A DNA stretch of 64,000 nucleotides from a virus, in IMG/VR virus record IMGVR_UViG_3300045988_127883, positions 1 through 64,000 of that record; one strand, given 5' to 3'. Shown in pieces: positions 12,530 through 29,190 of the stretch (position 1 is its first letter; each line of letters begins with the position of its first letter). Made by a program: the position numbers and the translations under genes. The notes under the pieces were generated by a model. It was not told the DNA's origin and searched no databases. It saw only the letters and a program-made list of their open reading frames with translations.

Positions 12530-12772
12530 ATAATAGCCAAAAGCTATTCCGATTATTAGCCTAAGTGTTGAAACAAACACTACGTTATTTAAGAATAGAT
12601 AGTTACCTACGGATGTTTGCCCAAGTTCGTAGCTCTAAGGTAAGTGATTAAACAGTTCTGGTATTCAGGAACAGTGTTGCTTACAAAAAAAACCTTAAAT
12701 AACATTGGCGATGGGTACTAACAGAGTTTCACTCTGACTTATGTTGAATAAACATTAAAAACGTTTGTAGAT
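12530..12772 (+). ncRNA. Omega-RNA / HEARO-like structured element, copy 1, immediately upstream of IscB-1.
   Basis: A scaffold of about 200 nt (tattagcctaag...cattggcgatgggtactaacag...tgactt) is shared by four loci. Its stems covary between copies, for example gtgttgaaacaaacac vs gtgcttcgagcac vs gccttgaaacaaaggc. Placement next to IscB matches the known architecture. Confidence 0.7.
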
Positions 12773-13999
12773 ATGGTGTACGTACAAGACATAAATGGTA
12801 AACCTATGATGCCTACAACAAGGCATGGTAAGGTTAGGAGACTGCTTAAAGACAAAAAGGCAATCGTTGTAAACCTATGTCCGTTTACCATCAAATTAAT
12901 GTACGTAACATCTGATTACAAACAGAAAATTGTATTAGGCGTTGATGCTGGTACTAAACATGTTGGTCTATCGGCTACAACGAAAAGCAAAGAACTTTAC
13001 AGCAGTGAAGTTATTCTTAGAAATGATATCGTAGATCTTTTGTCTACCAGAAGGGAGCTACGAAGATCAAGACGAAATAGATTGAGATATAGAAAACCTC
13101 GTTTTGATAATAGAATAAAAAGTAAGCGTCCGGGATGGGTAGCACCTTCGGTGAAATACAAAGTAGACGCCCATATTCGTGTTATTGACAATGTATGTTC
13201 TATATTACCAATATCTCGTATTGTTATCGAAGTAGCTCAATTTGATACTCAAAAGATTAACAATCCTAATATATCAGGTAAAGAATATCAGGAGGGTGAT
13301 CAACTTGGATTTTGGAACGTTAGGGAATATGTTTTAGCAAGAGATGGACATAAATGCCAGCATTGTAAGGGAAAGTCAAAAGACCCAGTATTGAATGTTC
13401 ATCATATTGAATCACGAAAGACAGGTGGAGATTCCCCATCTAATCTTATTACCTTATGTGAAACTTGTCATAAAGAATACCATAAAGGTAATATAGATTT
13501 AAAGATCAGAAGAGGCAAGTCGCTTCGCGACGCAGCCGTAATGGGAATAATGAAATGGAGATTGTATGAAGAACTAAGGTCTAAATACAACAGAGTTTCT
13601 ATGACTTTCGGTTATGTTACAAAATACAATAGGATTAAACATGGTATTGAAAAATCTCATGTTTTCGATGCATTTGTTATTTCTAAAAACTTTGATGCTA
13701 TAAGGTTAGGATATTATTATAAAGTAAGATTAGTAAGAAGACATAATCGTCAGATCCATAAACAAAAGATTCCAAAAGGAGGGATAAAAAGACCAAATCA
13801 ATCTCCTTTTGAAGTTTTTGGTTTCCGATTGTTTGATAGGGTTATGTTTGAAAACAGTTATTATTTTATATTCGCAAGGCGTAAAACCGGTAGTTTTAAT
13901 ATTCGAGATATTGATGGTAAAAACCAAAGAGATATTACATACAAGAAATTGAAATTATCAAGGTGTAAACGCTTTATGGTACAAAAGGAAATGGATTGA
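12773..13999 (+). CDS. iscB: IscB, the OMEGA RNA-guided nuclease and Cas9 ancestor (408 aa, copy 1).
   Basis: PLMP-like KPMMPT motif. RuvC-I LGVDAGTKHVGLS, Arg-rich bridge RRELRRSRRNRLRYRKPRF and RuvC-II IVIEVAQFD. HNH with zinc CxxC pairs (CQHCKG...NVHHIES...SNLITLCETCHKEYH). RuvC-III SHVFDAFVIS. C-terminal TI-like domain. Confidence 0.85.
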   Translation: MVYVQDINGKPMMPTTRHGKVRRLLKDKKAIVVNLCPFTIKLMYVTSDYKQKIVLGVDAGTKHVGLSATTKSKELYSSEVILRNDIVDLLSTRRELRRSRRNRLRYRKPRFDNRIKSKRPGWVAPSVKYKVDAHIRVIDNVCSILPISRIVIEVAQFDTQKINNPNISGKEYQEGDQLGFWNVREYVLARDGHKCQHCKGKSKDPVLNVHHIESRKTGGDSPSNLITLCETCHKEYHKGNIDLKIRRGKSLRDAAVMGIMKWRLYEELRSKYNRVSMTFGYVTKYNRIKHGIEKSHVFDAFVISKNFDAIRLGYYYKVRLVRRHNRQIHKQKIPKGGIKRPNQSPFEVFGFRLFDRVMFENSYYFIFARRKTGSFNIRDIDGKNQRDITYKKLKLSRCKRFMVQKEMD

Positions 14000-14493
14000 T
14001 TAATTTGAATAAAAATATAGACATGAATCGTTGGTTTGAAATCACAGTAAAAGCCGAGATTGATAATATCGAGAACGGCAAAAAAAAGAAGGTAACTGAA
14101 AAGTATTTGGTAGATGCCTTATCTTATACAGAGGCAGAATCAAGATCTTTAGAGATTTTCAAGGATTTATTTCAAGTGTTCGACATTGTTAAAATAAATC
14201 CTATTAAAGTGTCGGAAATCTTCTTCAACGGAGAAGCTGAGTACTGGTATAAGTGTAAGGTAAATTACATTACACTGGATGAAAAGAAAGGTAAAGAAAA
14301 GAAAACGCCATGCTATATGTATGTCCAGGCCGGCAATCCGAAAGACGCTGAGGCTGTGTTAACTAAAGGTATGCAGGGCACGTTAGGAGACTGGAATTGC
14401 GAAGCTATTGCTGAAACGAAGATCATTGACGTATTCAAATACGATCTTCAGAAGGGAGCTGAAAAATTAGGCGAGAAGAAGAGTGAAGAGTAA
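13996..14493 (+). CDS. Hypothetical protein. The start may be the internal ATG at 14023.
   Basis: The ORF has a TTG start at 13996 and an ATG at 14023. Confidence 0.45.
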   Translation: MINLNKNIDMNRWFEITVKAEIDNIENGKKKKVTEKYLVDALSYTEAESRSLEIFKDLFQVFDIVKINPIKVSEIFFNGEAEYWYKCKVNYITLDEKKGKEKKTPCYMYVQAGNPKDAEAVLTKGMQGTLGDWNCEAIAETKIIDVFKYDLQKGAEKLGEKKSEE

Positions 14494-14722
14494 GGCTGAT
14501 GTAGTTTCCAACATAGCGCTTGTTGTGGCGATAATATCATTGCTTTCAGCAGGCGCTTTCCTTCTAATAGTGATTAAGACAGACGAGGTATCTAAATTAT
14601 TAATGAACGTACCTTATCTACTGGCTTCAGCGGGATTGTTCTTTTCAATAATATCATTATTATTCGAATGGAAAGCAAGGAAAAGAAGCTATACGTCTGC
14701 GAACGATGCGGACGAAAAGTGA
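14483..14722 (+). CDS. Small membrane protein with two predicted TM helices (79 aa).
   Basis: Two hydrophobic stretches (IALVVAIISLLSAGAFLLIVI and LLASAGLFFSIISLLF). Confidence 0.45.
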   Translation: MKSKADVVSNIALVVAIISLLSAGAFLLIVIKTDEVSKLLMNVPYLLASAGLFFSIISLLFEWKARKRSYTSANDADEK

Positions 14723-15189
14723 TGATAAGAAGTCATGGCTTATGCCAGGCTTGCAGGAGCAAAGAGTTGACTCCGAAGAAGAAAAACAGAATTACATCCA
14801 TTAAAAACAGCAGCAAGAAGAAAAAGTTAGAGAGCCCGGATTTATCCGGGTTTTTTCGTCTTATGCTGGAAGAGCTAAATAGTATTCGGATGTCTATGAC
14901 TGGTAGGGCTATTCATTTTCCTACAGTATGTAACGTATGTCACATACTTCCGAAAAGGATATATAAGTCGGTTGCCACTTGCAGAGATAATATAGTTTTT
15001 CTACATGAATCGGAGCATACGGTATTCGACATGTATCTTGACCGGATAGAATTTGATAAACTTGAAACAGAATTTCCTTTTGTGTGGAAATATGCGGTAA
15101 AGAAGGTACTGGATATGGAAAGCAGGGGAATGATTAAAGAAAGAGGTAGGTTGATTATTGAAATAATTGACAGATATAACCCCAAATAG
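14668..15189 (+). CDS. Hypothetical zinc-ribbon protein. The start is at 14668 or at the ATGA-coupled ATG at 14722.
   Basis: The N-terminus has CERCGRK...CQAC. There is a 55-nt overlap with the preceding gene. Confidence 0.45.
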   Translation: MESKEKKLYVCERCGRKVMIRSHGLCQACRSKELTPKKKNRITSIKNSSKKKKLESPDLSGFFRLMLEELNSIRMSMTGRAIHFPTVCNVCHILPKRIYKSVATCRDNIVFLHESEHTVFDMYLDRIEFDKLETEFPFVWKYAVKKVLDMESRGMIKERGRLIIEIIDRYNPK

Positions 15190-15271
15190 TATTTGAGAAA
15201 GCAGCCACAGATATTGATGAGACTGTAACTGTGTTGTATTATGTTAAAGAGGAATTAATTGAGAAATTGCG

Positions 15272-16591
15272 ATGATAGAACAGAAAATAAAAATATTGAC
15301 AGATTTAGGGTTTGTACCTATGGTGGAGGGAAAAGGAAATACGTTGTTTAGAATGAACGATGTTGTGATGTCGGTGTCAGATCCTAATCAAACACCGGAG
15401 CAGTTGAAGAAGGAGGTTATGTCTTTAATAAAGAACAGAGACATAGCGGAAAGAGGTGGACAGGTTCCAGTAGTTGAAGAGCCGGCGCCTGAGCCAGAGC
15501 AGGCCCAGAAGGAGGAACCGGAAGCTCCGGCGGAGGAAGCCGCTCCTAACCCTGGAGAAGAAGATTCGAATCCGTTTATAGAAAATCAGGAAACATTAGA
15601 GCCATTTTATATCTGTGATGAGTTAAAGAAGATCGAGACTCCCAAATTCGTAAGATTGACATTAGACGGTAATCGTTTTTATGTAAGAAAGATGGACGAT
15701 GGGACAGCCAAGATATACGCCTCGGTAACAACCATGATCAGAGACGGATTCGTAGATGACAAAACGGCTCTTCAAGAATGGAGACAGGAGATGAGGATGA
15801 TTGGTCGCAATCCGGAAGAAGTATCAGAATATGATGCAGATAAAGGAACGATCATGCACTACCTATACGGATTATACTTGACAGGTAGAGATATGGTCTT
15901 AAATCGAAGTTTTATAGTTAAGACAGTGCAAGAAGGCAAGCTTAAAATATCAAAAAAGAATCTTGACAAATTCTTTGGTAGCATAGATGATCTTGACGAT
16001 ATGATTGTTAGGGTTATGAAGTTTGCTAAATTTTGTTCGGAGTATAAGGTTAAGCCGATGATGATTGAAAGAATATTATCATTAGAAGATTATTTGGTAG
16101 CTACGCCGATAGATGCGATGGTTAAAATGACATTCAAGTACAAAGAAGAAGGTTATTTTGGAGCCGTGTATCAAAGGGCTACGGGGCAGTTCAAAAAAGG
16201 AGATCCGAAGAAGGAAGTGAGAGAAGTGGAGAAAGAAGAGATTGTTATCTTAGATTTTAAATCAGGTGACATACGAAATGAACATGCTTTTCAATTGGAG
16301 GCTGAAAGGAGAATGGTTAAAAACTGGTACGGAATTGATGCACGTATTATGAATTTTTCTCCAAAAAGCACGAACAGTAAAGGTTATACGCTAAAAGAAT
16401 GGTCTGATAAAAATGCTGCTATGGAGAAGGCAGACTGTGTATTCCAACAAGGGATGTTGAATCATATCAGAAAAGACAAGAGGTTCAAAGTGAGAAAGGG
16501 AGTGCTGAATATCAATAAGCCTTACAATGAAGAGGATCATATTGTCGTATATGATATTGCTGAGGAAATGTCTAAAAGATTTGTAATATAA
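15272..16591 (+). CDS. Hypothetical protein (439 aa) with an acidic Pro/Glu-rich linker. It may carry a PD-(D/E)xK-like motif (IVILDFKSGD...QLEAE).
   Basis: Long ORF. The nuclease call is tentative. Confidence 0.5.
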   Translation: MIEQKIKILTDLGFVPMVEGKGNTLFRMNDVVMSVSDPNQTPEQLKKEVMSLIKNRDIAERGGQVPVVEEPAPEPEQAQKEEPEAPAEEAAPNPGEEDSNPFIENQETLEPFYICDELKKIETPKFVRLTLDGNRFYVRKMDDGTAKIYASVTTMIRDGFVDDKTALQEWRQEMRMIGRNPEEVSEYDADKGTIMHYLYGLYLTGRDMVLNRSFIVKTVQEGKLKISKKNLDKFFGSIDDLDDMIVRVMKFAKFCSEYKVKPMMIERILSLEDYLVATPIDAMVKMTFKYKEEGYFGAVYQRATGQFKKGDPKKEVREVEKEEIVILDFKSGDIRNEHAFQLEAERRMVKNWYGIDARIMNFSPKSTNSKGYTLKEWSDKNAAMEKADCVFQQGMLNHIRKDKRFKVRKGVLNINKPYNEEDHIVVYDIAEEMSKRFVI

Positions 16592-16600
16592 ATAAGCATT

Positions 16601-17614
16601 ATGCTTGATTTTAGAAGATACGAAAACGTACCCCGGTTTCAACTTGACCGCAGGCCGGGCAGGAGCCGACTGAAGCTAACCTGCCCAGCTTGCGGGAAAA
16701 GCCGGTGCCTCACTCCTTATATTGATGTGGCAACAGGTCAGGTTGTTGGAAACGAGTTCGGAAGATGCGATCACGAACGGACTTGCGGTTACGATAAACG
16801 ACCCACTGGTAAGGATGTAGGTGACAAAGATCTTTGGATTTCGGGAAATAAGTGTATAAGAGCTTATCGTCCTCCTATAAATCCTGACGTTGTAAATTAC
16901 ATACCTTTTAGCGAGTTTGAGAGGACTGTAGTCCCAGACAATAGAAACACCGTATTTAGATTTTTATCGTCTCTATGGGGAAAAGAAAGGGTATCTGATG
17001 TATTCAGAAGGTATCATGTCGGAACAATGGACTTATGGGGATGGAAAGGGTGTTGTATATTCTGGCAGATAGATAAGGACTTTGTATGTAGAACTGGCAA
17101 GATCATGGACTTTTATATAAAGACCGACAGCCAGGGGAATGAGATTGATGTAAAAAGAGTGAAAGAAAAAGACGGTGACAATGAGCGGCCTCATGTTATG
17201 TTTTATCACTCGTTGCATGCAAGGGACTTCTTGTTTAGACAATGCCTGTTCGGAGAGCATCTTCTAAGCCAGTATCCGGATAAGGTGGTTAATCTGGTGG
17301 AATCAGAAAAGACGGCTATTATATGCGCTGTGAATAAACCAGATGAATTATTTGTGGCCACCGGAGGGTTGCAGAATCTAAGGCCGGAAGTGATAGATGT
17401 TTTAAAAGATAGAAAGACTGTAGCTTTTCCGGACAAAGGACAAGCATTTGAGACATGGAGTAAAAAGATAGATGGGATGATGATGAAGTCAAGGATAAAA
17501 GTATCAGACTATCTTCAAAATGTTGAAAATGTAGGAGACGGAGATGATGTGGCAGATTTGATAATTAATAACAAGGTAAAAGAGAAATATCATGAGCCTG
17601 GATGTTTATATTAA
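16601..17614 (+). CDS. Putative DNA primase-like protein with an N-terminal zinc-ribbon and a TOPRIM-like domain (337 aa).
   Basis: CPACGK...CDHERTCGY zinc-binding. VNLVESEKTAIICAV...VATGG...AFPDKGQ resembles TOPRIM with a conserved Glu and an acidic motif. Confidence 0.5.
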   Translation: MLDFRRYENVPRFQLDRRPGRSRLKLTCPACGKSRCLTPYIDVATGQVVGNEFGRCDHERTCGYDKRPTGKDVGDKDLWISGNKCIRAYRPPINPDVVNYIPFSEFERTVVPDNRNTVFRFLSSLWGKERVSDVFRRYHVGTMDLWGWKGCCIFWQIDKDFVCRTGKIMDFYIKTDSQGNEIDVKRVKEKDGDNERPHVMFYHSLHARDFLFRQCLFGEHLLSQYPDKVVNLVESEKTAIICAVNKPDELFVATGGLQNLRPEVIDVLKDRKTVAFPDKGQAFETWSKKIDGMMMKSRIKVSDYLQNVENVGDGDDVADLIINNKVKEKYHEPGCLY

Positions 17615-17945
17615 GAACAAGAAGAAAGAAGAGGATCGTGAATGGGTTGCAAACATCACCCACAACATGAACAAGATGGCACAAAGAATATTCGTATCGG
17701 AAAATAAAGAAACGCTGTACGATTATGTTTGGAGACCAGAAGAATTGTATAAAGAAATATATACCAATGAGATGAAGAATGTACTTACAAAAGGTATATG
17801 TATTATGATCTCTAAGAGAAAAAGTCTTTTGAGATACGAGCCGGAAAACGGATGGGGGTCTTATGATTCATTTCTTAAGTTTCTTATCGAATATAAAGAG
17901 GCGTGTGAAGATAATCCAGGTTATATAATTGAAGCAAGCAGATAA
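17592..17945 (+). CDS. Hypothetical protein (117 aa).
   Basis: Intact ORF. Confidence 0.4.
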   Translation: MSLDVYIKNKKKEEDREWVANITHNMNKMAQRIFVSENKETLYDYVWRPEELYKEIYTNEMKNVLTKGICIMISKRKSLLRYEPENGWGSYDSFLKFLIEYKEACEDNPGYIIEASR

Positions 17946-18204
17946 TATGGAAAATTACAAAAACACTTTAAACGAGGTAGTGGTGATCGAATCGTCACCA
18001 GAAACGTATTTTGTTTACGCTATTCGTAATGCTATTCGTATCTCTAAATGCGCGTATCCGACAGCCAAGAAAGTAATTTTCAAAAGAGAGGACGTAGAGG
18101 TAGAGATCTCAGAAATGGAAACTGAAAGCAGTTTGTATGAAAAGTTTAAAGAAAAACAAAAGAATAGGGTATGGAACTTAATGAGCGCCAACAACGGGTT
18201 TTAA
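17929..18204 (+). CDS. Hypothetical protein (91 aa).
   Basis: Intact ORF. Confidence 0.4.
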   Translation: MKQADNMENYKNTLNEVVVIESSPETYFVYAIRNAIRISKCAYPTAKKVIFKREDVEVEISEMETESSLYEKFKEKQKNRVWNLMSANNGF

Positions 18205-18737
18205 GAGGCGAAATTTGTCCTTATTGCGGAAGAGAAACTGAGCTGGTAAATGCCGATAAAATATATAGCAGAAAAGGCTTAGGGATGGTTATGATGTGCA
18301 AACCATGCAACGCTTATGTCGGTGTTCATGAATCAGGGCCGAATAAGGGAAAAGCTAAAGGCTGGCTCGCGGGGCCATCACTGAGATCTCTTAAGATAAG
18401 AGTCCATGCCGAACTTGACAGACTATGGTCTACGCCGGAGGAACGGAAAAGGATGTATAAAGATTTATCTGAATTTCTCTCTATACCGGAAGAATACACA
18501 CATATAGGTATGTTCGGCGAGAAGACGATGGGAAAAATCTTTCAGTTCTGTCATGTAAACAAAGAGCGATCAGGTTCGAGAATAGAATGGCATAAGCCTG
18601 GAGATAAGTGCCCTAATAAAAACAATCAAATAGTGTCAGGCAGTAGCGCATGCAGAGGATGTCCTGAGTATCTTCATGATGAGAAAGACGGGTATGTCTG
18701 GTGTGATCCTGATATGAGCTACGGCAGGTTGAAATAG
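18171..18737 (+). CDS. Hypothetical zinc-ribbon protein (188 aa).
   Basis: CPYCG...CKPCN, plus C-terminal CRGCPEY. Confidence 0.45.
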   Translation: MELNERQQRVLRGEICPYCGRETELVNADKIYSRKGLGMVMMCKPCNAYVGVHESGPNKGKAKGWLAGPSLRSLKIRVHAELDRLWSTPEERKRMYKDLSEFLSIPEEYTHIGMFGEKTMGKIFQFCHVNKERSGSRIEWHKPGDKCPNKNNQIVSGSSACRGCPEYLHDEKDGYVWCDPDMSYGRLK

Positions 18738-18789
18738 GGCGCGAATTGCCTATCTTTGTGCTATTATCAATCAAAAAAAATGTAAGAAG

Positions 18790-19065
18790 ATGGGCAGATC
18801 AACAGAGTACTACAGGACTCATCCCGAAGCCAGGAAGAAAAAGGCTAAAAAGGACAAGGAGATAAATGCCAGACCGGAACAGAAAGCCAAACGCCGGGAG
18901 CTTGGTCGTAAAAACTACGAAACGGACAAGAAGAAGGGCAAGGGCTGGAGGAAAGGCAAGGATTGTTCTCATACCAAGAACGGTCTTAGGTATAAATCAG
19001 TAAAAGCTAATAGGGGATCCAAATCGGATACGAAAGGTGACAAAAATGCAAGATCTCCGAAATAA
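18790..19065 (+). CDS. Highly basic small protein (91 aa, Lys/Arg-rich). It may bind nucleic acid.
   Basis: Composition is visibly K/R dominated. Confidence 0.4.
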   Translation: MGRSTEYYRTHPEARKKKAKKDKEINARPEQKAKRRELGRKNYETDKKKGKGWRKGKDCSHTKNGLRYKSVKANRGSKSDTKGDKNARSPK

Positions 19066-19103
19066 TATACAAAAAGACAAATAGAATTTTACTTTTTTGT
19101 ATA

Positions 19104-19350
19104 TCCAGTTTTACTGGCCGGTTATTAGCCTAAGTGCTTCGAGCACTACGTTATCGGAGAATGTATAGTTACCCTGGAGTGTTTATCCAAGCTCCAGGCT
19201 CTAAGGCAGGTGATTAAACAGTATTTGTATTTGGATACAGTGTTGCTTGTAAGAAACCTCTGAATAACATTGGCGATGGGTACTAACAGATTGAAATATA
19301 TCTGACTTACTACGAATAGTAGTTATTAATTAAAAATTAGTTTGTAACAA
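19104..19350 (+). ncRNA. Omega-RNA / HEARO-like structured element, copy 2, upstream of IscB-2.
   Basis: Same conserved scaffold with compensatory stem changes. Ends at the IscB ATG. Confidence 0.7.
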
Positions 19351-20610
19351 ATGGTGTACGTACAAGACATAAATGGTAAACCTATGATGCCTACAACAAG
19401 GCATGGTAAGGTTAGGAGACTGCTTAAAGACAAAAAGGCAGTTGTTGTCAACTTATGTCCGTTTACCATCAAATTAATGTACGTTACATCTGATTACAAA
19501 CAGGAAATTGTGTTAGGCGTTGATGCTGGAACTAAACATGTTGGTCTATCAGCTACGACGAAAAGCAAGGAGCTTTACGCAAGTGAAGTTATTCTGAGAA
19601 ATGATATCATTAATTTGCTTTCGACAAGAAGAGAATTGAGGAAAGCGAGAAGGAATAGGATAAGGTATAGAAAGCCGAGATTTAATAACAGAATAAAGTC
19701 GAAGCGCCAAGGATGGATAGCTCCATCTGTTTGTCAAAAAATTGATTCCCATATTAAGGTTGTCAGTTTTATACATTCTATCCTTCCTGTTTCAAGATTA
19801 ATTATAGAAACTTCTCAGTTTGATACTCAAAAGATTAAGAATCCTGATATATTGGGAAAAGAATACCAGCAAGGCGAGCAACTTGGATTTTGGAATGTTC
19901 GAGAATACATACTTTTTCGTGATGGTCACAAATGCCAGCATTGTAAGGGAAAATCGAAAAATCCTATTCTTAATATCCACCATATCGAATCGCGAAAGAC
20001 TGGTGGAGATTCACCTTCTAATTTGATTACTTTATGTGAAACTTGCCATAAGGAGTACCATAAGGGGAATATTAAATTGAAGGTAAAAAGAGGAACTTCA
20101 CTTCGTGATGCGGCCGCGATGGGAATCATGAAATGGAAGTTATTCGATAAATTGAAGTCATTATATCCAAACGTTAGTATGACATTTGGATATATAACGA
20201 AACATAATCGGATAAAACATAGAATCGAAAAGTCCCATGTTTCTGATGCATTTGTTATCTCAGAGAATTTTAAAGCAAAAAGGCTTGGATATCATTTCAA
20301 GATGAAACTCACACGGAGACATAATAGGCAAATTCATAAAATGAAGATGCAAAAGGGAGGGATCAAAAGAATGAATCAATCACCATTTAGGGTATTTGGG
20401 TTTAGACTATTTGATAAAGTAATGTTTTATGGTGAAAAACGATTTATTTACGCAAGAAGACTTTCTGGTAGTTTTAAAATAAAAGATATAGATGGGGAAA
20501 ATGAGAAAAATATATCATATAAAAAATTAAAATATATAGGACATGGATTGACTTCTATTGAAGTAGATCAATCATATGGATATAAAGCAAATACACATAA
20601 TAACGAATAA
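19351..20610 (+). CDS. iscB: IscB (419 aa, copy 2). It is the most diverged copy and has a C-terminal extension.
   Basis: All motifs as in copy 1 are retained (RuvC-II IIETSQFD, HNH NIHHIES/CETCHKEYH, RuvC-III SHVSDAFVIS). The first ~90 nt are identical to the other copies. Confidence 0.85.
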   Translation: MVYVQDINGKPMMPTTRHGKVRRLLKDKKAVVVNLCPFTIKLMYVTSDYKQEIVLGVDAGTKHVGLSATTKSKELYASEVILRNDIINLLSTRRELRKARRNRIRYRKPRFNNRIKSKRQGWIAPSVCQKIDSHIKVVSFIHSILPVSRLIIETSQFDTQKIKNPDILGKEYQQGEQLGFWNVREYILFRDGHKCQHCKGKSKNPILNIHHIESRKTGGDSPSNLITLCETCHKEYHKGNIKLKVKRGTSLRDAAAMGIMKWKLFDKLKSLYPNVSMTFGYITKHNRIKHRIEKSHVSDAFVISENFKAKRLGYHFKMKLTRRHNRQIHKMKMQKGGIKRMNQSPFRVFGFRLFDKVMFYGEKRFIYARRLSGSFKIKDIDGENEKNISYKKLKYIGHGLTSIEVDQSYGYKANTHNNE

Positions 20611-20615
20611 TCACA

Positions 20616-21746
20616 ATGGAGTTTGGAACATTCGATAACAAAACGACAAAAGTTAACATCCGGAATATTTTCAAAACCTCCAAACAGGTTATGGAAGAGG
20701 CGTATGAGAATATCTTGAAATACAGGCGGGGAGAGCTTATCCCCGCTAAAACCGGATACGATTATATTGATGAGGCTTTGCTTGGAGGTATTTTCCCTCA
20801 GCATGCTATTGCCATAGGAGCCCGGCCATCTGTAGGTAAATCGTATGTGGCCCAAAAGATATTGGAAAATGTGATGAATCCGATGATCAACCCGCAAGCA
20901 GAAGATTATTTTCTTGTTAATTGCGAGTTCGAAATGAATCCTCAAGATCTTCTTCTTCGCAGAATGAGCCAGGATATGAAAAAGCGGGCTCCTGAAATAT
21001 TAAGAAGGCAAGATTCTAATACAGTAGAAGAGATGAGGATGTTTGAAATCCTTCAAGGTGAAATCAGAAATAATATAATATACATCGATGCTCCGTGTAC
21101 GGTAAAAGAGTTTGAGGCGGCTGTGTATCATATAGCTACCAAACATAAAGACAAACGTCTTATAATATTTAAAGTCGATCATATTGCTTTGATAAAAAGA
21201 ATGGGATTAGATCCTAAGTCGGCTATAGATGATTTGGTGGCGGTTATGAACGAAGCTAAATTAGTATATAAAAACATATTTTTCCTCATCATATCCCAAT
21301 TCAACAGAGAAATAGAAGGAAGGATAAAAAGCCCACAAGAGCAGCCTCCGCGTCTTTCTGATTTTTACCAGTCTGATACGCTGGGTCAGTTATGTACGTT
21401 AATGATAGGTTTGCACAATCCTCGTAGGTACGGGCTGGATAAGTATATGATATTTGGGAAAGATTGGTATCAGACTCTTGATAGGTTTAAAACTGAAAAC
21501 AAAACATCATTCAGGACAGCCGGACTTGTGTTTCATCATATACTGAAGGTAAGGCAAGTTAGTATGGAAGAGCTTACTAATACAATCCACCCAGAGATAC
21601 TGCCGGGACATGGATGGATGTACGGGGAGGGCGGGACGAAGTTCGTGAACCCCAACCAGCCGCCGACGCCGCCTAAGCTCTATACTGTGGAAGACGTTAC
21701 GGACAATCAGGAACAAGAGACAAAAAAAGAACAGTCATTGTATTAA
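20616..21746 (+). CDS. DnaB-like replicative helicase, RecA-fold C-terminal domain (376 aa).
   Basis: Walker A GARPSVGKS. DnaB-like SQFNRE (SQLNR) motif. Walker B-like IIFKVDHIAL. Confidence 0.65.
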   Translation: MEFGTFDNKTTKVNIRNIFKTSKQVMEEAYENILKYRRGELIPAKTGYDYIDEALLGGIFPQHAIAIGARPSVGKSYVAQKILENVMNPMINPQAEDYFLVNCEFEMNPQDLLLRRMSQDMKKRAPEILRRQDSNTVEEMRMFEILQGEIRNNIIYIDAPCTVKEFEAAVYHIATKHKDKRLIIFKVDHIALIKRMGLDPKSAIDDLVAVMNEAKLVYKNIFFLIISQFNREIEGRIKSPQEQPPRLSDFYQSDTLGQLCTLMIGLHNPRRYGLDKYMIFGKDWYQTLDRFKTENKTSFRTAGLVFHHILKVRQVSMEELTNTIHPEILPGHGWMYGEGGTKFVNPNQPPTPPKLYTVEDVTDNQEQETKKEQSLY

Positions 21747-21761
21747 AAAAAAATAAGAACC

Positions 21762-22364: not shown

Positions 22365-22379
22365 AAACAAGGAGGGAAT

Positions 22380-22577
22380 ATGGAAAAGAAGGAATTTAAA
22401 GTAGGAGAAGTATTTGATGCCGGACTTGTAAGATTAAAATGTGTGGAAGGTGATACATGCGATAGGTGTATATTCAAAGATTACGATTCTTGTTCATGTA
22501 CAGACATAATTGTTGGTCCATGTGGACATGTTGATAGACAAGATAACAAGAATGTTATTTTTATTAAAGCTGATTAA
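22380..22577 (+). CDS. Hypothetical Cys-rich small protein (65 aa).
   Basis: ORF with aaggagg SD. Confidence 0.4.
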   Translation: MEKKEFKVGEVFDAGLVRLKCVEGDTCDRCIFKDYDSCSCTDIIVGPCGHVDRQDNKNVIFIKAD

Positions 22578-22579
22578 GA

Positions 22580-23293
22580 ATGTACATCAATTTCAGACAA
22601 CTTGCAGCATCAGACATGACCCCTAATGATCTTGCCAATCTTCTTGCCATAAGACAGAAGGATTCGGTTATGATCGAAGCTATGCCAGAAGAAGACGCTG
22701 GTAGATATATAGAGCTTGGCCTGGTTGAGAAATTAAAATCAGGCGTGATGAGATTGACCAACAAAGGAACGTCTTTTGTGAATTATATAGAGACACCGGA
22801 GATGACAGACGAGGTTCTGGAAACGTTGAAGATTATGATAGGAATGTACGAATCATATTCAAAAGACATAGGTGTCAGCAGAAAAGAAGCGGAATCCAGA
22901 TTGTGTTGGTTTATGGGTAACACCTCATTCAAGAAAGAGGTCATACTTCAGGTAACGGAATCTTATATAGCAGAGTCAGGAGATTATACAATGAGCTTAT
23001 GTAACTTCATATGGAAACCGCCTTCTCAGGCTTTTTCAGTCCATATGAACCTTAAAAATTCAAAGCTCTTTGACTTAATAGCTGAAAAATTTAAGATCGC
23101 TACCGAGCCTTATTTGGAGTCTAAGAAGAATAAGGAAATGGATTGGTTGTTTGCCGTATCTAAATTGCCTACGCCGCCGGCTAAAGGCAATCCGGATTAT
23201 TTGTTTACCGGAAGCTCGGAGACAGATAAAGAGCGATTGAAAAACATAAAAACGTATTTATTTAACAAAATTAGAAAGCAATGGAAAAAGTAA
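22580..23293 (+). CDS. Hypothetical protein (237 aa).
   Basis: Intact ORF. Confidence 0.45.
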   Translation: MYINFRQLAASDMTPNDLANLLAIRQKDSVMIEAMPEEDAGRYIELGLVEKLKSGVMRLTNKGTSFVNYIETPEMTDEVLETLKIMIGMYESYSKDIGVSRKEAESRLCWFMGNTSFKKEVILQVTESYIAESGDYTMSLCNFIWKPPSQAFSVHMNLKNSKLFDLIAEKFKIATEPYLESKKNKEMDWLFAVSKLPTPPAKGNPDYLFTGSSETDKERLKNIKTYLFNKIRKQWKK

Positions 23294-23532
23294 GAATCAG
23301 AAAGATAATAGAGGATATAATTATTACTCAGTTTCTTAATTCGGAAATAGATATAGTTCATGAAGAAGATGTGTCGTTTAAAGAACTTGGATTAGATTCT
23401 GTTGATCGGATTGAGCTTGATGTGATGGTGGAACAAAAATTCAATATTGTTATTATTGATTATGATATGGAGACCATCAAAGATATGACTGATCTTGTTT
23501 ACAAAATAATAACAGAAGGATATGGGAAGTGA
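23281..23532 (+). CDS. Acyl-carrier-protein-like protein (83 aa).
   Basis: ELGLDSVDRIELDVMVEQKFNIVI matches the ACP phosphopantetheine-attachment region (DLGxDSLDxVELvM..EeeF). Confidence 0.5.
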   Translation: MEKVRIRKIIEDIIITQFLNSEIDIVHEEDVSFKELGLDSVDRIELDVMVEQKFNIVIIDYDMETIKDMTDLVYKIITEGYGK

Positions 23533-24016
23533 CATAATTTTATGCATGGCTTTAATAGCGTCATTTGCTTTTGTTATACAGTTTTTGTTGTCGATATTAG
23601 GATCTGATCTGGATACGGATATTGACATTGACAGTGCTTCTGATTTAAGTATGTCTTTGTCGGACATCATATCATTCAAGGGCATAACACATTTCATCCT
23701 TGGATATAGCTGGACTACCTACTTTTCGGGTTCTCATTTAGTAGGGGTTGTGATAGGGTCGTTTTTCTTTATCGTTTTGTTTTACGTATATAAGTTACTT
23801 CTTAAGTTAAAACAAGAAATGGTGTACGAATGTCCAGAAGATTTAAATGGCAGAGAAGTGGAGATAGTATTTAGATCAGGAAAGAACCATTATATGGTAA
23901 ATATTGTGAAAAACGGGAGACAGGAACAGATGAGAGTAGGGTGCTTGTCTGGGAAAAATTACAAAAATGGTGACAAGGTGAACATAAAATACGAAGAAGG
24001 AGAATTAAGTATCTAA
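23522..24016 (+). CDS. NfeD-like membrane protein, the usual partner of SPFH/flotillin proteins (164 aa).
   Basis: N-terminal TM helices plus a C-terminal soluble Gly/Val-rich domain. It sits immediately upstream of the SPFH gene, as in yuaF-yuaG (floT) type pairs. Confidence 0.5.
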   Translation: MGSDIILCMALIASFAFVIQFLLSILGSDLDTDIDIDSASDLSMSLSDIISFKGITHFILGYSWTTYFSGSHLVGVVIGSFFFIVLFYVYKLLLKLKQEMVYECPEDLNGREVEIVFRSGKNHYMVNIVKNGRQEQMRVGCLSGKNYKNGDKVNIKYEEGELSI

Positions 24017-24049
24017 TTTTTTTATACCAACAATTAAATTTTAAAAGTT

Positions 24050-25750
24050 ATGACAACAATCATGTACGTGTCAGCTATCTTAGCTGTAGTGATTATTTTG
24101 ACAATCATCGGAGTCTTATCAAGGTATCGTAGATGCAAGCCTAATCAGGTTTTGGTCGTTTACGGTAAGACAGGTGGGGAAAAGAAATCGGCGAAATTAT
24201 ATCATGGTGGAGCAGCATTCGTGTTGCCTATTATCCAAAGCTATGATATTTTATCTATGGAGCCTATGCAAATAGATTGTAGGCTTACTGGTGCTTTGTC
24301 ATCTCAGAATATTAGAGTAGATGTGCCTACAACTATTACAGTAGCTATCAGTACAAATCCTGAAATCATGCAAAATGCAGCAGAAAGACTTTTGGGGATG
24401 GATACCGAATCTACTGAAAATCTTATTACAGACATCGTTTACGGTCAGATGCGTTTGATTATTGCCGAAATGACAATCGAAAAACTTAATTCTGATAGGG
24501 ATGAGTTTTTGGATAAGGCAAGAAAAAACATTGATAACGAACTTAATAAATTGGGTCTTTATCTTTTGAACATTAACATCAGTGACATCAGAGATGAAGC
24601 CGGCTACATCATGAATCTTGGTAAAGAGGCTGAAAGCAAGGCTCTGAACGAAGCACAGGCTAATATCGAAGAACAGGAAAAGCTGGGTGCTATTAAGATT
24701 GCTGTACAACAGAAGGAAAAAGAAACGGCTGTAGCTAATACCCAAAAAGAGCAAGAGATTCAAATTGCCTATACTGAAAAAGAAAAAGAAACGGTAGTAG
24801 CTGAAACAAAGAAAGAAAAAGAAGTAGCTTTGGCTTTAACCGATAAAGAAAAACAGATCGGTGTAGCTCAAGCCGATAGAGATAGGGCTGCGGCTATAGC
24901 AAAGACTTTGGCTGACAAGGAATCAGCGATTGCAAGATCTAAGGCGGAACTTGAAGTAAACAAAGCTGAAGCCGAAAGAATGGAAGAAGTTGGAAAGAAT
25001 AAAGCTGAAGCTGACAAACAAGCAGCTATAGCAATACAAGACTCTGAAGCTCAGATTAAGAAAGCTGAGGCTGAGAAAAATGCTTCTGTAGGCTACAACA
25101 ATGCCCAGAAAGAGGTTGCTGTATCAGAATCAGAATTGCAGGTTATCAAAGCTCAATCAGAAAAGAAGGCCGGAGAAGAAAAAGTTAAATCGGAAGCGGC
25201 TGTAAAAACGGCAAAAGAGCTTGCTGATAAAGAAGTGGAAGAAGCTAAGGCTAAGAAAGTTCAGGCTGCGCTTAAGGCTGAAAAGATTGTGCCGGCTGAA
25301 ACCCAGAAGGAAGAGGCTATCTTACAAGCTGATGCCGAGGCCGAGAAGATCAAACGCCGGGCTGAGGCTGAGGCAGCAGCACATTTGGCAAAAGCTGAGG
25401 CAGAGGCAAAAGCTATTCAGATGAAGCTGGAGGCAGAAGCCGACGGTAAGAAAAAGTCGTTAATGGCAGAAGCCGACGGATTTAAGGCTATGGTGGAAGC
25501 AGCAGAATCCAATCCCCAGATCGCCATCCAGTACAAGATGGTTAATCAGTGGAAAGAAATTGCTGGAGAACAGGTTAAAGCATTTGAGCACATTAACCTC
25601 GGAAATATCACGGTATTTGACGGCGGTCAGAACAGTACCGGTAATTTCCTTAACAATGTTGTCAAGACCGTCGCTCCGGCATTGGGAGTCATCGATCAGC
25701 TTCCGATTGCAGATACTTTAAAGAAATTAAAAGGAGATGACAAAAAATAA
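24050..25750 (+). CDS. Flotillin-like SPFH / band-7 protein with a long Ala/Glu/Lys-rich coiled coil (566 aa).
   Basis: N-terminal TM and SPFH core (NQVLVVYGKTGG...PIIQSYDILSMEPMQIDC...RVDVPTTITVAIS). Followed by flotillin-type EA-rich repeats (AEAEKIKRRAEAEAAAHLAKAEAEAKA). Confidence 0.7.
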   Translation: MTTIMYVSAILAVVIILTIIGVLSRYRRCKPNQVLVVYGKTGGEKKSAKLYHGGAAFVLPIIQSYDILSMEPMQIDCRLTGALSSQNIRVDVPTTITVAISTNPEIMQNAAERLLGMDTESTENLITDIVYGQMRLIIAEMTIEKLNSDRDEFLDKARKNIDNELNKLGLYLLNINISDIRDEAGYIMNLGKEAESKALNEAQANIEEQEKLGAIKIAVQQKEKETAVANTQKEQEIQIAYTEKEKETVVAETKKEKEVALALTDKEKQIGVAQADRDRAAAIAKTLADKESAIARSKAELEVNKAEAERMEEVGKNKAEADKQAAIAIQDSEAQIKKAEAEKNASVGYNNAQKEVAVSESELQVIKAQSEKKAGEEKVKSEAAVKTAKELADKEVEEAKAKKVQAALKAEKIVPAETQKEEAILQADAEAEKIKRRAEAEAAAHLAKAEAEAKAIQMKLEAEADGKKKSLMAEADGFKAMVEAAESNPQIAIQYKMVNQWKEIAGEQVKAFEHINLGNITVFDGGQNSTGNFLNNVVKTVAPALGVIDQLPIADTLKKLKGDDKK

Positions 25751-25944
25751 ATACAATGGCCCAAGGTTACACTTGGGCCTAATTGAAGAAGCAAAAGCAG
25801 CATTTATAGATTTCATGCCAGCAGGAATAGTGATTTTTAGTGCTTTACTAATTACGATATTTTTAACATGGATTTTGGACAAGATTTAGAACCAGAAGAA
25901 CTGACCAAGCATTATGATCAGTGTTATAACCCCAAATAGTATTA

Positions 25945-26240
25945 AACCAATATAATTCTATTATAAAAGTTTAATACATCTCTTTAAGAGATCGGGTTAT
26001 TAGCCTAAGCCTTGAAACAAAGGCTACGTTATTTAAGAATAGATAGTTACCTACGGATGTTTGCCCAAGTCTGTAGCTCTAAGGTAAGTGATTAAACAGT
26101 TCTGGTATTCAGGAACAGTGTTGCTTATTCAAAACCTTAAATAACATTGGCGATGGGTACTTACAGGAGAAATCCTGACTTATCCCTAACGGGATTTACA
26201 TCTACCAAGGAGACCGGAAGGTCTCCGAGGGGATGTATTA
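25945..26240 (+). ncRNA. Orphan omega-RNA / HEARO-like element (copy 3) with no downstream IscB ORF. It ends in a strong hairpin (ggagaccggaaggtctcc).
   Basis: Full conserved scaffold present and closest to copy 1. The next ORF (26284) is unrelated. The 5' flank (25945-25976) is homologous to the copy-4 5' flank. Confidence 0.6.
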
Positions 26241-26283
26241 AAACATATGAATAGCTTTAAATATATTTAATAGAATATGAGAT

Positions 26284-26631
26284 ATGGAATTGATTTTGAA
26301 ACAGAAGAAGAGGAGGATGAAGAGTATGACTGATGAGGAATTTGTATTGGATAATAAGAAAAAGGTTGTTGTAAGAAAAAGAATATCTTATTTAAACAAA
26401 GGTGATAAAGTGTGGATCGTGTCTTCCGATGGGTATCTACTACACACGGACGTAGTTAGAGCCGACCGGGGCCGATCTTATGTGGATATAGACGGGATAC
26501 TGTATTGGAAGCGAGGATTAGATGGCAAACATCGTAATCGTAATAACTACATGCAGTTTGCCATGACACCAGAAGACGGTAAGAAGTATGTCGTATATTA
26601 CCCGGAAGGATTTAAAGACAATGACTTATGA
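26284..26631 (+). CDS. Hypothetical protein (115 aa).
   Basis: Intact ORF. Confidence 0.45.
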   Translation: MELILKQKKRRMKSMTDEEFVLDNKKKVVVRKRISYLNKGDKVWIVSSDGYLLHTDVVRADRGRSYVDIDGILYWKRGLDGKHRNRNNYMQFAMTPEDGKKYVVYYPEGFKDNDL

Positions 26632-27656
26632 TGGTCCCGGAAACACATTTGCTATATAAGGAGTTTAATGGTGTAAAACGTCTTGCCATATCTTATTCCC
26701 AGATAGATACGTTTCTTACCTGTCCAATGAAATGGTATAAGACTTACGTAGAGGGCAAAAGGTCTACAGAAAAACAAGAAGCTACGTCTTATGGTACGGT
26801 TATCCATAAGACACTGGAATACTTTTTTAAGAACGGAAGACAGCCTTCTGGTAAAGACCTTGGAGAAGCAATAAGTTACTATGCTTACCAGGAAGACATA
26901 CCTTGGCAATCACCGGAAAATATGATGATAGCCATGAAACAATCTGGAGAACTTCTTGCTTGGATTGTGGATCTATTTAAAAAAGACGGGAATAGGTTTA
27001 TGATAGCTGATAGTGATCTTAATCCCTGTGAGAAACTTATTAGACACGGCGCTATAGTTGGAGTCGAAGAAGATTTTGTGCTGCCGTACCGTCTTCCTAA
27101 GCCTGTTGATATAAATGGGACCGTTCATACTCATGTGTACATAGTAGGATCGGTGGATCTTCATCTGGCTATAAAGAGCAAGAACGTAGTTCACCATTAT
27201 GTCATAGATTGGAAATCAGGTAATAAGGTTTTTGATTCCAAGAAGTTGGAAACGAATTTACAGCATCCTATATATTCGTTTTACATCTATAGAAAATATG
27301 GTGGGGTTCTGCCAGATATGAACATCTATTTCTTTACCAGGACCAGGCAGTACCAAAAGGTTAAAGTAGATGAAGAACGTAAAACAAAATCTATAGAGAT
27401 GCTAAACGATACATTATCCAAAATGTATGATTTTGAAGATAATAGTGTAAAATCATTTCAAGCGTACATCCAGGGAGCAGAAGGAGCCAGGTATAGCAAG
27501 CGGCGTGCCACCCTAAGCCAGCCTGTTTCGCAAAACAAGCTACCCTGCCCGTCAGCACTGTGTTATTATTGTGACTTTGGATTACATAACAAAAACGAAT
27601 GCCCTTTCTCTTCGGATTGGGATCCGTCTAAAAAGATAAAACGATATCTGAAATAA
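26628..27656 (+). CDS. Cas4-like / RecB-family PD-(D/E)xK nuclease with a Cys cluster (342 aa).
   Basis: N-terminal SYSQIDTFLTCPMKWY. Core VGSVDLHLAIKS...IDWKSG (D...D/E-x-K). C-terminal CPSALCYYC...ECPF. One N-terminal plus three C-terminal Cys is the Cas4-type FeS arrangement. Confidence 0.6.
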   Translation: MMVPETHLLYKEFNGVKRLAISYSQIDTFLTCPMKWYKTYVEGKRSTEKQEATSYGTVIHKTLEYFFKNGRQPSGKDLGEAISYYAYQEDIPWQSPENMMIAMKQSGELLAWIVDLFKKDGNRFMIADSDLNPCEKLIRHGAIVGVEEDFVLPYRLPKPVDINGTVHTHVYIVGSVDLHLAIKSKNVVHHYVIDWKSGNKVFDSKKLETNLQHPIYSFYIYRKYGGVLPDMNIYFFTRTRQYQKVKVDEERKTKSIEMLNDTLSKMYDFEDNSVKSFQAYIQGAEGARYSKRRATLSQPVSQNKLPCPSALCYYCDFGLHNKNECPFSSDWDPSKKIKRYLK

Positions 27657-27932
27657 CATTAAAACAATATAATTCCATTATAAGGTTTTAATGTACCAGA
27701 AATGGTCCGGATATTAGCCTAAGCCTTGAAACATAGGCTACGTTATTTGAGAATATATAGTTACCTACGGATGTTTACCCAAGTCTGTAGCTCTAAGGAT
27801 GGTGATTAAACAACAGTTGTATTTGGATTGTAGTGTTGCTTACTAAAAACCTTAAATAACATTGGCGATGGGTACTAACAGGATGGAATATTCCTGACTT
27901 ATGTTGAATAAACATTAAAAACGTTTGTAGAT
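27657..27932 (+). ncRNA. Omega-RNA / HEARO-like structured element, copy 4, upstream of IscB-3.
   Basis: Same scaffold. It starts directly after the upstream gene's stop codon. The 3' 40 nt plus the start of IscB are identical to copy 1. Confidence 0.7.
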
Positions 27933-29153
27933 ATGGTGTACGTACAAGACATAAATGGTAAACCTATGATGCCTACAACAAGGCATGGTAAGGTTAGGAG
28001 ACTGCTTAAAGACAAAAAGGCAATCGTTGTAAACCTATGTCCGTTTACCATCAAATTAATGTACGTAACATCTGATTACAAACAGAAAATTGTATTAGGC
28101 GTTGATGCTGGTACTAAGCATGTTGGTCTATCAGCTACGACGAAAAGCAAAGAACTTTACGCAAGCGAAGTGACTTTAAGAAATGATATTGTAGATCTTT
28201 TGTCTACCAGAAGAGAGCTACGAAGATCGAGACGAAATAGATTGAGGTATAGAAAACCTCGTTTCAATAATAGAATAAAAAGCAAGCGTCCAGGATGGAT
28301 AGCACCTTCGGTGCAGTACAAAGTAGACGCTCATATTCGTGTTATTGATAATGTTTTTTCTATACTGCCTGTATCCCGTATTGTTATTGAAGTAGCTCAA
28401 TTCGATATACAAAAGATTAAGAATCCTGAGATATTCGGTAAAGAGTATCAGGAGGGTGATCAACTTGGTTTTTGGAACATCAGAGAGTATGTCTTAACAA
28501 GGGATGGACACAAATGCCAGTATTGTAAAGGAAAGTCAAAAGACCCAGTATTGAATGTTCATCATCTTGAGTCTCGAAAAACCGGAGGGGATTCCCCATC
28601 TAATCTTATTACCTTATGTGAAACTTGTCATAAAGAATACCATAAAGGTAATATAGATTTAAAGATCAGAAGAGGCAAGTCGCTTCGCGACGCAGCCGTA
28701 ATGGGGATTATGAAATGGAGGTTGTATGAAGAGTTAAAATCCAGATACGACAGAGTTTCTATGACGTTTGGTTACATCACGAAACATAATCGGATTAAAT
28801 ACGGGATTGAAAAATCCCATACATCCGACGCGTTTGTCATTTCTAAGAACATTAATGCGAAACGAATCGAACGTCAATATTTAAAACGTTTAATTCGTAG
28901 ACATAATAGACAAATACATAAAATGAAAATTTTAAAAGGAGGGAAGAAGAAAAACAATCAAGCTCCTTTTGAGGTTTTCGGATTTAGATTGTTTGATAAA
29001 GTGTTGTATGATAATAAAATATGTTTTGTTTATGGAAGGAGAAAATCAGGGAATTTCAATATCAGGGATTTCAACGGAGAAAACCCGAAGGATGTTTCAC
29101 GCAAAAAGTTTAAACTCATTAGAGGGAAGAGGCATCCGATTATATTAAAGTAA
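27933..29153 (+). CDS. iscB: IscB (406 aa, copy 3).
   Basis: Same motif set (RuvC-II IVIEVAQFD, HNH NVHHLES/CETCHKEYH, RuvC-III SHTSDAFVIS). About 185 nt at the 5' end are identical to copy 1, then it diverges. Confidence 0.85.
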   Translation: MVYVQDINGKPMMPTTRHGKVRRLLKDKKAIVVNLCPFTIKLMYVTSDYKQKIVLGVDAGTKHVGLSATTKSKELYASEVTLRNDIVDLLSTRRELRRSRRNRLRYRKPRFNNRIKSKRPGWIAPSVQYKVDAHIRVIDNVFSILPVSRIVIEVAQFDIQKIKNPEIFGKEYQEGDQLGFWNIREYVLTRDGHKCQYCKGKSKDPVLNVHHLESRKTGGDSPSNLITLCETCHKEYHKGNIDLKIRRGKSLRDAAVMGIMKWRLYEELKSRYDRVSMTFGYITKHNRIKYGIEKSHTSDAFVISKNINAKRIERQYLKRLIRRHNRQIHKMKILKGGKKKNNQAPFEVFGFRLFDKVLYDNKICFVYGRRKSGNFNIRDFNGENPKDVSRKKFKLIRGKRHPIILK

Positions 29154-29190
29154 ATGAATAGATTTAATAAATTTAATAGAAAAACGCATT

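Follow-up and report, generated by a model that had tools for sequence, protein, structure and literature searches.

Start-codon-docked IscB-ωRNA elements in a human-gut phage and their possible RNA-guided homing among co-infecting relatives

Introduction

Cas9 and Cas12 descend from IscB and TnpB, for which, to our knowledge, experiments have established only one natural role, the restoration of a transposon after its excision in bacteria. Some ISC (IscB) transposons, non-autonomous members of the IS200/IS605 superfamily, have been published to insert at N/ATGA without target duplication (PMC4810608; a slash before or after a motif marks a junction throughout). That viral contigs frequently carry IscB/HEARO loci is established (PMC9755519), and 'transposon non-restorative homing' in phages was treated as theoretical in a 2026 review (PMC13565253). 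A literature search, which was not exhaustive, yielded no paper on IscB homing or start-codon docking in phages, nor one with population-level evidence that such elements home there. Here we analyse 64,000 nt of viral DNA (positions 1 to 64,000 of the IMG/VR record IMGVR_UViG_3300045988_127883; hereafter the window), in which a sequence-only reading had seen IscB loci as freestanding intergenic cassettes among replication genes, arranged like homing endonucleases, and compare its IscB elements with those of related phages.

Results

Element-free alleles and predicted guide targets in relatives

Four elements were delineated in the window, all on the + strand like the surrounding phage genes, namely three cassettes of an ωRNA and an IscB gene, c1 (12472-14022), c2 (19062, accurate to a few nt, to 20615) and c3 (27644-29190), and c4 (25926-26283, 358 nt), which from its sequence is an ωRNA mini-element without an open reading frame (ORF). 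They are built alike, with a 16-nt upstream guide, an ωRNA scaffold, the IscB gene (not in c4), a short right end and the ATG(A/G) of the next gene. The cassettes of the sequence-only reading are therefore real, each of the three ORFs with RRXRR and HNH domains following a HEARO RNA that scores above the gathering threshold.

Relatives for comparison were csAssE-Sib (OR575929.1), a complete human-gut phage of 151 kb that is ~94% identical and syntenic to the window, and 80 syntenic IMG/VR relatives with ±10 kb, gathered by a DnaB-anchored scan (fetched loci are cited by L number). Presence or absence of an element was called from junction sequences, as a pile-up was misled by cross-matching among element copies. 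None of the four elements is found in csAssE-Sib, and together with the ~80 IMG/VR relatives it supplies empty alleles for all four sites; the expected cassette-free alleles were thus found, and the contrary outcome, sites never empty or guides unmatched, did not occur. Among the relatives, the c1 site is occupied in ~13, the c4 site in 12, the c2 site in 3 plus one further contig, and the c3 site in none of 76. In this highly recombining phage population the sites are fixed, and each either holds its element or is empty.

Three sites connect the guide with the empty allele. For c4, whose junctions are clean in comparison with L001, the empty allele reads ...CATTATGATCAGTGTT/ATGGAATTG, i.e. 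a clean insertion with an AT ambiguity only and no target duplication; its 16-nt guide CATTATGATCAGTGTT (25910-25925) followed by ATG is perfect in the empty alleles of most relatives, and the ATGG behind the element (26284-26287), target and putative target-adjacent motif (TAM), is also the start codon of ORF 26284-26631. The c3 guide CTAAAAAGATAAAACG (27628-27643) lies within the last codons of a PD-(D/E)XK nuclease gene, and CTAAAAAGATAAAACG/ATGAAAT, i.e. the window guide and then ATGA, was found in 43 of 76 empty alleles, where this ATGA starts a 168-nt small gene that c3 has replaced; an empty c3-site allele lacking the small gene was looked for in IMG/VR with 0 matches. The c1 guide TAAGTATTTCGTGGCC (12456-12471), the 16 nt 5′ of the scaffold, was placed by the covarying P1 stem (ATAATCG with CGATTAT). 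The usual occupied c1 allele reads ...GGCCACGATAGTAA/ATAATCG and that of the window ...GGCC/ATAATCG, and the empty alleles, ...ACGATAGTAA/ATGAAGAGG, have the ancestral c1 guide directly before ATG. Both c1 and c3 are replacements of 150-190 nt running from an ATG to a downstream ATG, so that guide and ATG adjoin in the empty allele only, which makes the match non-trivial. The proposal that the guide targets the cassette-free allele next to a TAM is thereby borne out for c3, c4 and the ancestral c1, and fails for the c1 of the window, with its 10-nt deletion, and for c2.

A different history is recorded around c2. Its guide segment ATGCAAGATCTCCGAA (19046-19061) has a boundary good to a few nt, the Rfam model beginning at 19062. 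This guide region and the first 17 DnaB codons behind the element (20616-20666, beginning with the ATGG that is target and putative TAM) differ from both empty haplotypes, which gives a c2-only flank of ~10 nt on the left and 51 nt on the right. Residues 1-11 of the window DnaB were matched only in c2-carrying relatives, and an exact-match scan with the right flank returned 4 IMG/VR contigs, all with c2. These c2-specific flanks lead us to conclude, from the sequence comparison, that c2 came by recombination with a diverged donor, flanks included. That its guide lacks a known empty-allele match accords with the rarity of c2.

Two further observations concern the predicted targets. A few element-free relatives have no ATG after the c1 guide match (ACG in L001, ~7498, and in L157; ATA in L089) and are possible TAM-loss variants. 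The c3 guide with TAM, CTAAAAAGATAAAACG/ATGAAAG, is also the exact start of a gene, MKEYKYKINGNSYKVTI..., on large bacterial contigs from 67 gut metagenomes (L266-L336, e.g. PVML01016941.1). The 71 metagenome matches were rejected as further copies of the c3 junction or as empty alleles lacking the small gene: they are unrelated, there was no identity past the searched pattern, the database is very large, and they are most likely due to chance.

Variable left junctions

At the c1 site the left junctions vary and the right junction is single. The common alleles end just 5′ of the wild-type ATG, and the private ones (window, L052/L137, L060) do not. The series can be derived, on the sequences at hand, by (A)AT-microhomology deletions from a primary insertion at the downstream ATG; we suggest that the guide may be re-written in this way, and that wild-type genomes would be cut only by those variants whose deletion ends in front of an ATG. 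The junctions might alternatively stem from recombination between two direct copies lying close together. The left junctions of c1 and c3 were accordingly set aside as proof of independent insertions, because (A)AT-microhomology deletion from a primary insertion explains them equally.

In several alleles the guide is missing through recurrent small deletions (7-25 nt) that reach as far as the first scaffold base: in the window c1 (between 12471 and 12472), in L052/L137 and L060 at the c1 site, and in L123 at the c4 site. Leaky self-cutting is one idea, given the likeness between the ATG target and the ATA... with which the element itself begins.

Docking at start codons

All four window elements end directly at the ATG start codon of the next gene. 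In an automatic survey of 166 IscB copies from the window and the fetched loci, with 37 distinct right flanks that represent ~30 sites, all 37 flanks began with ATG (ATGA 23, ATGG 7, ATGT 6), and bacterial relatives obey the same pattern. The distance from the IscB stop codon to this ATG is fixed for each family whatever the downstream gene: it is always 23 nt in ~10 flank contexts for the c1 type (right end ...AATAAAAATATAGAC, 14000-14022), a constant spacer of 37-38 nt for the c3 type (right end ...AATAGAAAAACGCATT, 29154-29190), and 30-34 nt for an IscB family of only 60% identity. Homology among copies at different loci covers window positions 27644-29193 for the c3 type, stopping at 29193, and 12471/2-14025/7 for the c1 type; the c1 left end ATAATCGAGAATAATGCATAAC is common to copies at other loci, and the c3 left end to >20 copies elsewhere. 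The left ends read ATATCCGAAATAAC... (c3 type), ATAATCGAGAATAAT... (c1 type) and ATAACCCCAAATAG... (c4). An ATG-containing motif is hence the insertion target and probably also the TAM. At c1 the ATGA (14023-14026) is the start codon of a DUF4494 gene, and at c3 (29191-29194) that of ORF 29191-29505.

This target accounts for much of what had been noticed first. The freestanding intergenic look is due to the N/ATGA preference and to selection for harmless sites, not to kinship with homing endonucleases; what stood of the homing-endonuclease-like arrangement is the functional parallel, i.e. the empty sites and guide matches. Because the ATG is on the same strand as IscB, element and neighbouring genes share one orientation, and since docking takes place before an ATG, genes stay unbroken, the upstream gene obtaining a new stop and the downstream one keeping its start codon. 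The c3 scaffold, for example, begins just before the upstream stop and gives the upstream gene 3 new codons and a new stop. Cassettes had been described as ending 5-40 nt before the next gene, which is correct for the IscB ORFs, whose stop codons lie 23, 5 and 37 nt (c1, c2, c3) short of the next ATG, and not for the elements, which reach it with a gap of 0 nt. Their supposed start immediately after an upstream stop codon proved wrong: the c2 scaffold covers the stop codon (19063-19065) of ORF 18790-19065, the c3 scaffold starts before one, and c1 starts 149 nt past the gene 11655-12323, within the remnant of a small ORF. The neighbouring genes had been named correctly, Pfam assigning DnaB_C at 20616, the PD-(D/E)XK nuclease at 26628-27656, just 5′ of c3, and an SF2 helicase at 29885. 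This replication-gene neighbourhood is incidental, as the same family occurs at other loci in relatives.

IscB proteins and ωRNAs

Pfam identified both RRXRR (E 1e-58 to 1e-60) and HNH domains in all three IscB ORFs. The c1 protein (12773-13999, 408 amino acids; RRXRR 3.6e-60, HNH 4e-9), the c2 protein (19351-20610, 419 amino acids; RRXRR 7.6e-58) and the c3 protein (27933-29153, 406 amino acids; RRXRR 1.5e-59) were aligned by phmmer with OgeuIscB (PDB 7utn/7xht) at E 1e-42, and the alignment showed the RuvC residues D, E and H..D and the HNH residues HH..N to be retained. The motifs GVDAG, IEVAQFD or IETSQFD, NVHH and KSHxxDA are found in all three. The c2 IscB shares 75-76% amino-acid identity with those of c1 and c3, and between IscB copies the ratio of nonsynonymous to synonymous substitution rates (dN/dS) was 0.07-0.17, with dS of 0.3-2. 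The low dN/dS and the conserved catalytic residues together indicate that the window proteins are selected to stay functional. With motifs intact and guide plus ATG present in empty alleles, the window IscBs are predicted to cleave double-stranded DNA in a guide- and TAM-dependent manner.

Four full-length HEARO (RF02033) matches were obtained with Rfam, at 94-113 bits against a gathering score of 83. They lie at 12530-12722 (113.1 bits) within the c1 scaffold and left end (12472-12772), at 19062-19287 (100.9 bits) within the c2 scaffold (19062-19350), at 27669-27879 (93.8 bits) within the c3 scaffold (27644-27932), and at 25926-26164 (112.9 bits) in c4, with no IscB ORF behind. In the P1 stem, the first seven scaffold bases pair with the bases directly before the conserved TAGCCTAAG, and the stem covaries in three fully complementary versions (ATAATCG with CGATTAT, ATATCCG with CGGATAT, ATAACCC with GGGTTAT); in the window c3 it reads ATATCTG with CGGATAT. 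This pairing sets the first scaffold base and so places the guide in the 16 nt upstream.

By pairwise comparison, the ends of c4 are homologous to those of c3 and its core is 93% identical to the c1 ωRNA, so c4 looks like a chimera of the two types. The IscB that it uses is presumably supplied in trans. Similar mini-elements were noticed at L007 1104-1480 and L065 9732-10011.

Spread and linkage in the phage population

Relatives of the c3 protein in IMG/VR number 337, mostly on gut-phage contigs of 80-160 kb, and in >20 relatives a c3-type element sits at another locus. In 185,579 bacterial species genomes there are practically no close homologues; the best match there (87%) is on a phage-like contig of a Vibrio assembly, the next reaches 68% and the others are <60%. 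The lineage of these IscB elements, to judge from such matches, circulates in phages. The best match (L240, NZ_JBHMEP010000019.1, 'Vibrio olivae' assembly) is a 20-kb contig whose IscB element is 87% identical to c3 and which bears the 255-amino-acid ORF described below as in gut-phage loci L025-L028; it is probably phage or contaminant sequence within a bacterial assembly.

Linkage was examined for window positions 8000-34000 against L081-L160, with pairs of single-nucleotide polymorphisms (SNPs) matched in frequency. Between SNPs, r² was 0.47 at <50 nt, 0.32 at 50-200 nt and 0.02 at >2 kb, falling to background within ~0.5-1 kb, which indicates very frequent recombination among co-circulating relatives. 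The presence of c4 and c1 had an r² of only 0.02-0.03 (maxima 0.12 and 0.06) with frequency-matched SNPs at <200 nt, i.e. about tenfold under SNP-SNP linkage at equal distance, although nearby SNPs represent few independent blocks and metagenome assemblies may be chimeric across a 0.36-1.5-kb indel. Near-zero element-SNP linkage points to repeated gain and/or precise loss at the same site. For co-conversion of flanking markers the picture is mixed: c2 has flanks seen only with the element, and for c1 and c4 the linkage test ran against the simple expectation, with next to no linkage.

Element frequencies are low to intermediate (about 15-20%; 4 of 222 contigs; c3 unique), and several relatives carry broken IscB ORFs, which is what turnover of a selfish element would lead one to expect. 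Intact nucleases, dN/dS of ~0.1, the imported c2 flanks and the near-zero linkage all fit ongoing lateral spread.

Transposase and terminal hairpins

No Y1_Tnp was found among the 39 window ORFs, and no TnpA within 4 kb of the bacterial relatives. A tblastn search of 3.2 Mb of related loci, with IS608 and IS200 TnpA queries, found no cognate TnpA; the only TnpA, in L127 and L154, belongs to an IS605-like element of 1.65 kb with tnpA and tnpB, the target TTTAC (TTTAT in L052) and a right end ending in GTCAA. It was rejected as the cognate transposase on account of this target, which differs from ATG(A/G). The guide-side ends fold as strong single-stranded DNA hairpins (z of -4.3 for c1, -3.7 for c2, -3.3 for c3 and -5.8 for c4). 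At the TAM-side ends of c1-c3 no significant hairpin was found (z 0 to +1), with a weak all-A/T stem at most; a more distant phage IscB family does show a clear one.

The IS605-like element is autonomous. It is inserted at TTTAC/ATGACAG in a DUF3268 zinc-finger gene (L127 7844-9494, L154 7838-9488; window-equivalent position between 18554 and 18555), its tnpA of 132 amino acids is 40% identical to IS608 TnpA, and its divergent tnpB is full-length (379 amino acids); L052 has a TnpB-only copy at TTTAT/GTTAAAAG (window 11831). A second OMEGA family is represented in the window itself by a truncated TnpB at 45117-45966 on the - strand (ORF 45134-45817, 227 amino acids, OrfB_IS605 and Cas12f1-like TNB domains), whose right end finishes in ...TATGTCAA. 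Its site is a variable hotspot, where >20 relatives have a c3-type IscB instead or as well (L002-L022; both in L006).

Other genes without a csAssE-Sib counterpart

An ORF of 255 amino acids (31733-32500, in the stretch 31670-32500; true start probably the ATG at 31766) has no Pfam match and is not in csAssE-Sib. Homologues of 77-79% identity lie within a few hundred nt of IscB elements in L023, L025-L027, L030-L039 and L240. The perfect hairpin ATAATACGATACA...TGTATCGTATTAT (31717-31748), which precedes this ORF, is similar to the hairpin found at the left end in some c1-type elements (L047). The segment 7997-8690, for which csAssE-Sib has no aligned counterpart, contains an ORF for an N6-adenine methyltransferase of the Dam type (8005-8667; Pfam Dam, 6.9e-15).

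Discussion

Four non-autonomous ISC-type OMEGA elements reside in a ~150-kb human-gut phage, and the explanation that we favour, and hold to be somewhat probable, is that they home by RNA guidance during co-infection. Transcripts reading through an element would yield the ωRNA with its upstream flank as the guide, the downstream gene still being expressed. In a co-infected cell, IscB-ωRNA would cut the relative in which the guide match adjoins an ATG, i.e. the element-free allele, and recombinational repair from the element-bearing genome would copy the element in (non-restorative homing), which may also replace a small neighbouring gene. The mini-element c4 would borrow IscB in trans. A first arrival at a new ATG would need a Y1 transposase in trans, or recombination, and small deletions at the junction of guide and scaffold would keep re-writing the guide. 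A bolder version, put forward tentatively as possible but doubtful, is that these are transposase-independent RNA-guided gene drives with an ATG-plus-purine TAM and guides from operon transcripts, which are cut and copied between co-infecting phages, overwrite accessory genes, have their guides re-written by microhomology deletions and regain drive when a new guide precedes a wild-type ATG.

Several results weigh against homing as the explanation. The window's c1 guide, damaged by a private 10-nt deletion (ACGATAGTAA), has lost its position before an ATG, no empty allele is known that the c2 guide would match, and c3, which has the best-matching guide, was found at this site in no other contig (0 of 76 relatives; 0 matches in an IMG/VR search for the c3 junction). 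The guide targets in empty alleles have no excess diversity (π 0.034-0.045 versus 0.035 locally, 40-53% of 16-nt windows being as diverse), and so give no sign of drive resistance. Homing should moreover raise flank linkage, and the low linkage disequilibrium could equally be due to repeated precise loss or to chimeric assemblies. Finally, no cognate TnpA and no significant TAM-side hairpin were found that would account for the route to new ATG sites.

Much would also follow from transposition of the IS200/IS605 type only, in which a Y1 TnpA in trans pastes the elements at N/ATGA, IscB merely restores them after excision on sister genomes, as in Geobacillus, and phage-to-phage spread is ordinary recombination. 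Its target type and lack of target duplication are exactly those of ISC transposons, the same family occupies many unrelated ATGs, strong subterminal hairpins are present at the guide-side ends, some of these phages do carry a Y1 TnpA (L127, L154), and precise TnpA excision would account for the missing flank linkage. We nevertheless rate it as rather unlikely to be the whole explanation, as the sole TnpA found belongs to a tnpA+tnpB element with another target (TTTAC/TTTAT), none lies in the window or within 4 kb of the bacterial relatives, and the TAM-side ends of c1-c3 lack a significant hairpin; c2 brought a foreign flank, which transposition does not do, and c1 and c3 replace DNA and are not simple insertions. 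The selfish homing between co-infecting phages that the sequence-only reading had proposed is plausible from the empty alleles, the guide matches and the sequence evidence for lateral spread (dN/dS, the c2 flanks, low linkage), and for the arrival of the elements transposition serves equally well.

Guides that match element-free relatives beside an ATG, strong purifying selection on IscB and several differently guided copies per genome would also suit a weapon of benefit to the phage, with IscB-ωRNA destroying co-infecting element-free relatives (marker or competitor exclusion) and element copying as a side effect, a mode of action known for freestanding homing endonucleases (PMC13565253). The low to intermediate frequencies, the IscB ORFs broken in several relatives and the damaged c1 guide of the window make this improbable, and a fixed beneficial trait fits the pattern less well than does a selfish element undergoing turnover. 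Still less credible, and in our view highly improbable, is that the elements are inert relics, i.e. decaying inactive insertions whose presence or absence is an ancestral polymorphism that recombination has shuffled. Guide-adjacent deletions (window c1; L052, L123, L060), the broken ORFs of some relatives and a population linkage disequilibrium that decays within ~500 nt anyway could be read so; on the other hand, all three window ORFs are full-length with catalytic residues, dN/dS is 0.07-0.17 over dS up to 2, all four ωRNAs are full-length and above the gathering threshold, element-SNP linkage is ~tenfold under that between SNPs at equal distance, and related copies stand at many different sites.

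This phage population is a natural setting in which to test the other role proposed for these nucleases, that of driving spread into genomes without the element, as it offers four differently guided elements in one genome, dozens of element-free and element-bearing relatives, and exact predicted targets of guide plus ATG. Start-codon docking is a simple way for a mobile element to live harmlessly in a gene-dense virus, and the elements provide compact (406-419 amino acids), apparently active IscB variants with a probable short ATG-type TAM.

Comparison with known systems

OgeuIscB recognises the TAM NWRRNA, and that of the window elements would be ATGR. With OgeuIscB (PDB 7utn/7xht; HEARO RF02033) the window proteins share the PLMP/RRXRR N-terminus, a RuvC domain split by HNH and all catalytic residues, and the elements share an ωRNA of ~200-300 nt directly upstream with the guide at its 5′ end; the proteins differ in being shorter (406-419 versus 496 amino acids) and in a C-terminal, TAM-reading part that is not alignable. 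The closest known kind, as judged from sequence features, is the ISC/IscB-ωRNA element with an N/ATGA target. Like the ISC transposons of Kapitonov, Makarova & Koonin 2016 (PMC4810608), the window elements have a single IscB gene and no transposase, insert directly 5′ of ATGA/ATGG without target-site duplication, have a subterminal hairpin at the ωRNA-side end, and have ORF-less derivatives resembling PATEs. Unlike them, they belong to a phage lineage without a close bacterial counterpart, their ATG is nearly always the start codon of a gene, with the element co-oriented inside an operon, a convincing TAM-side hairpin and a cognate Y1 transposase were not found, and two of the four copies replace host DNA in place of simple insertion.

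The 'peel-paste-cut-copy' restorative homing of TnpB/IscB (Meers et al. 2023, bioRxiv 10.1101/2023.03.14.532601) and non-restorative homing (PMC13565253) likewise rely on a flank-derived guide with which only the element-free joint plus TAM is recognised, and on a double-strand break and recombination that re-copy the element. The difference from restorative homing is the target, proposed here to be the genome of a co-infecting phage and not a sister chromosome after TnpA excision.

With the freestanding homing endonuclease genes of T4-like phages (Seg, Mob; intronless homing), the window elements have in common an intergenic position between conserved genes, presence/absence polymorphism among relatives, a cut predicted in silico in the element-free allele beside the insertion point, the import of flanks (c2) and the replacement of small neighbouring ORFs. 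The proteins are unrelated except for the HNH fold; recognition would be by an RNA guide and a short motif instead of by protein, and it would be the interrupted target, as in intron homing, that distinguishes self from non-self. The window IscBs are thus not members of the LAGLIDADG, GIY-YIG or HNH homing families, and may work like homing endonucleases all the same.

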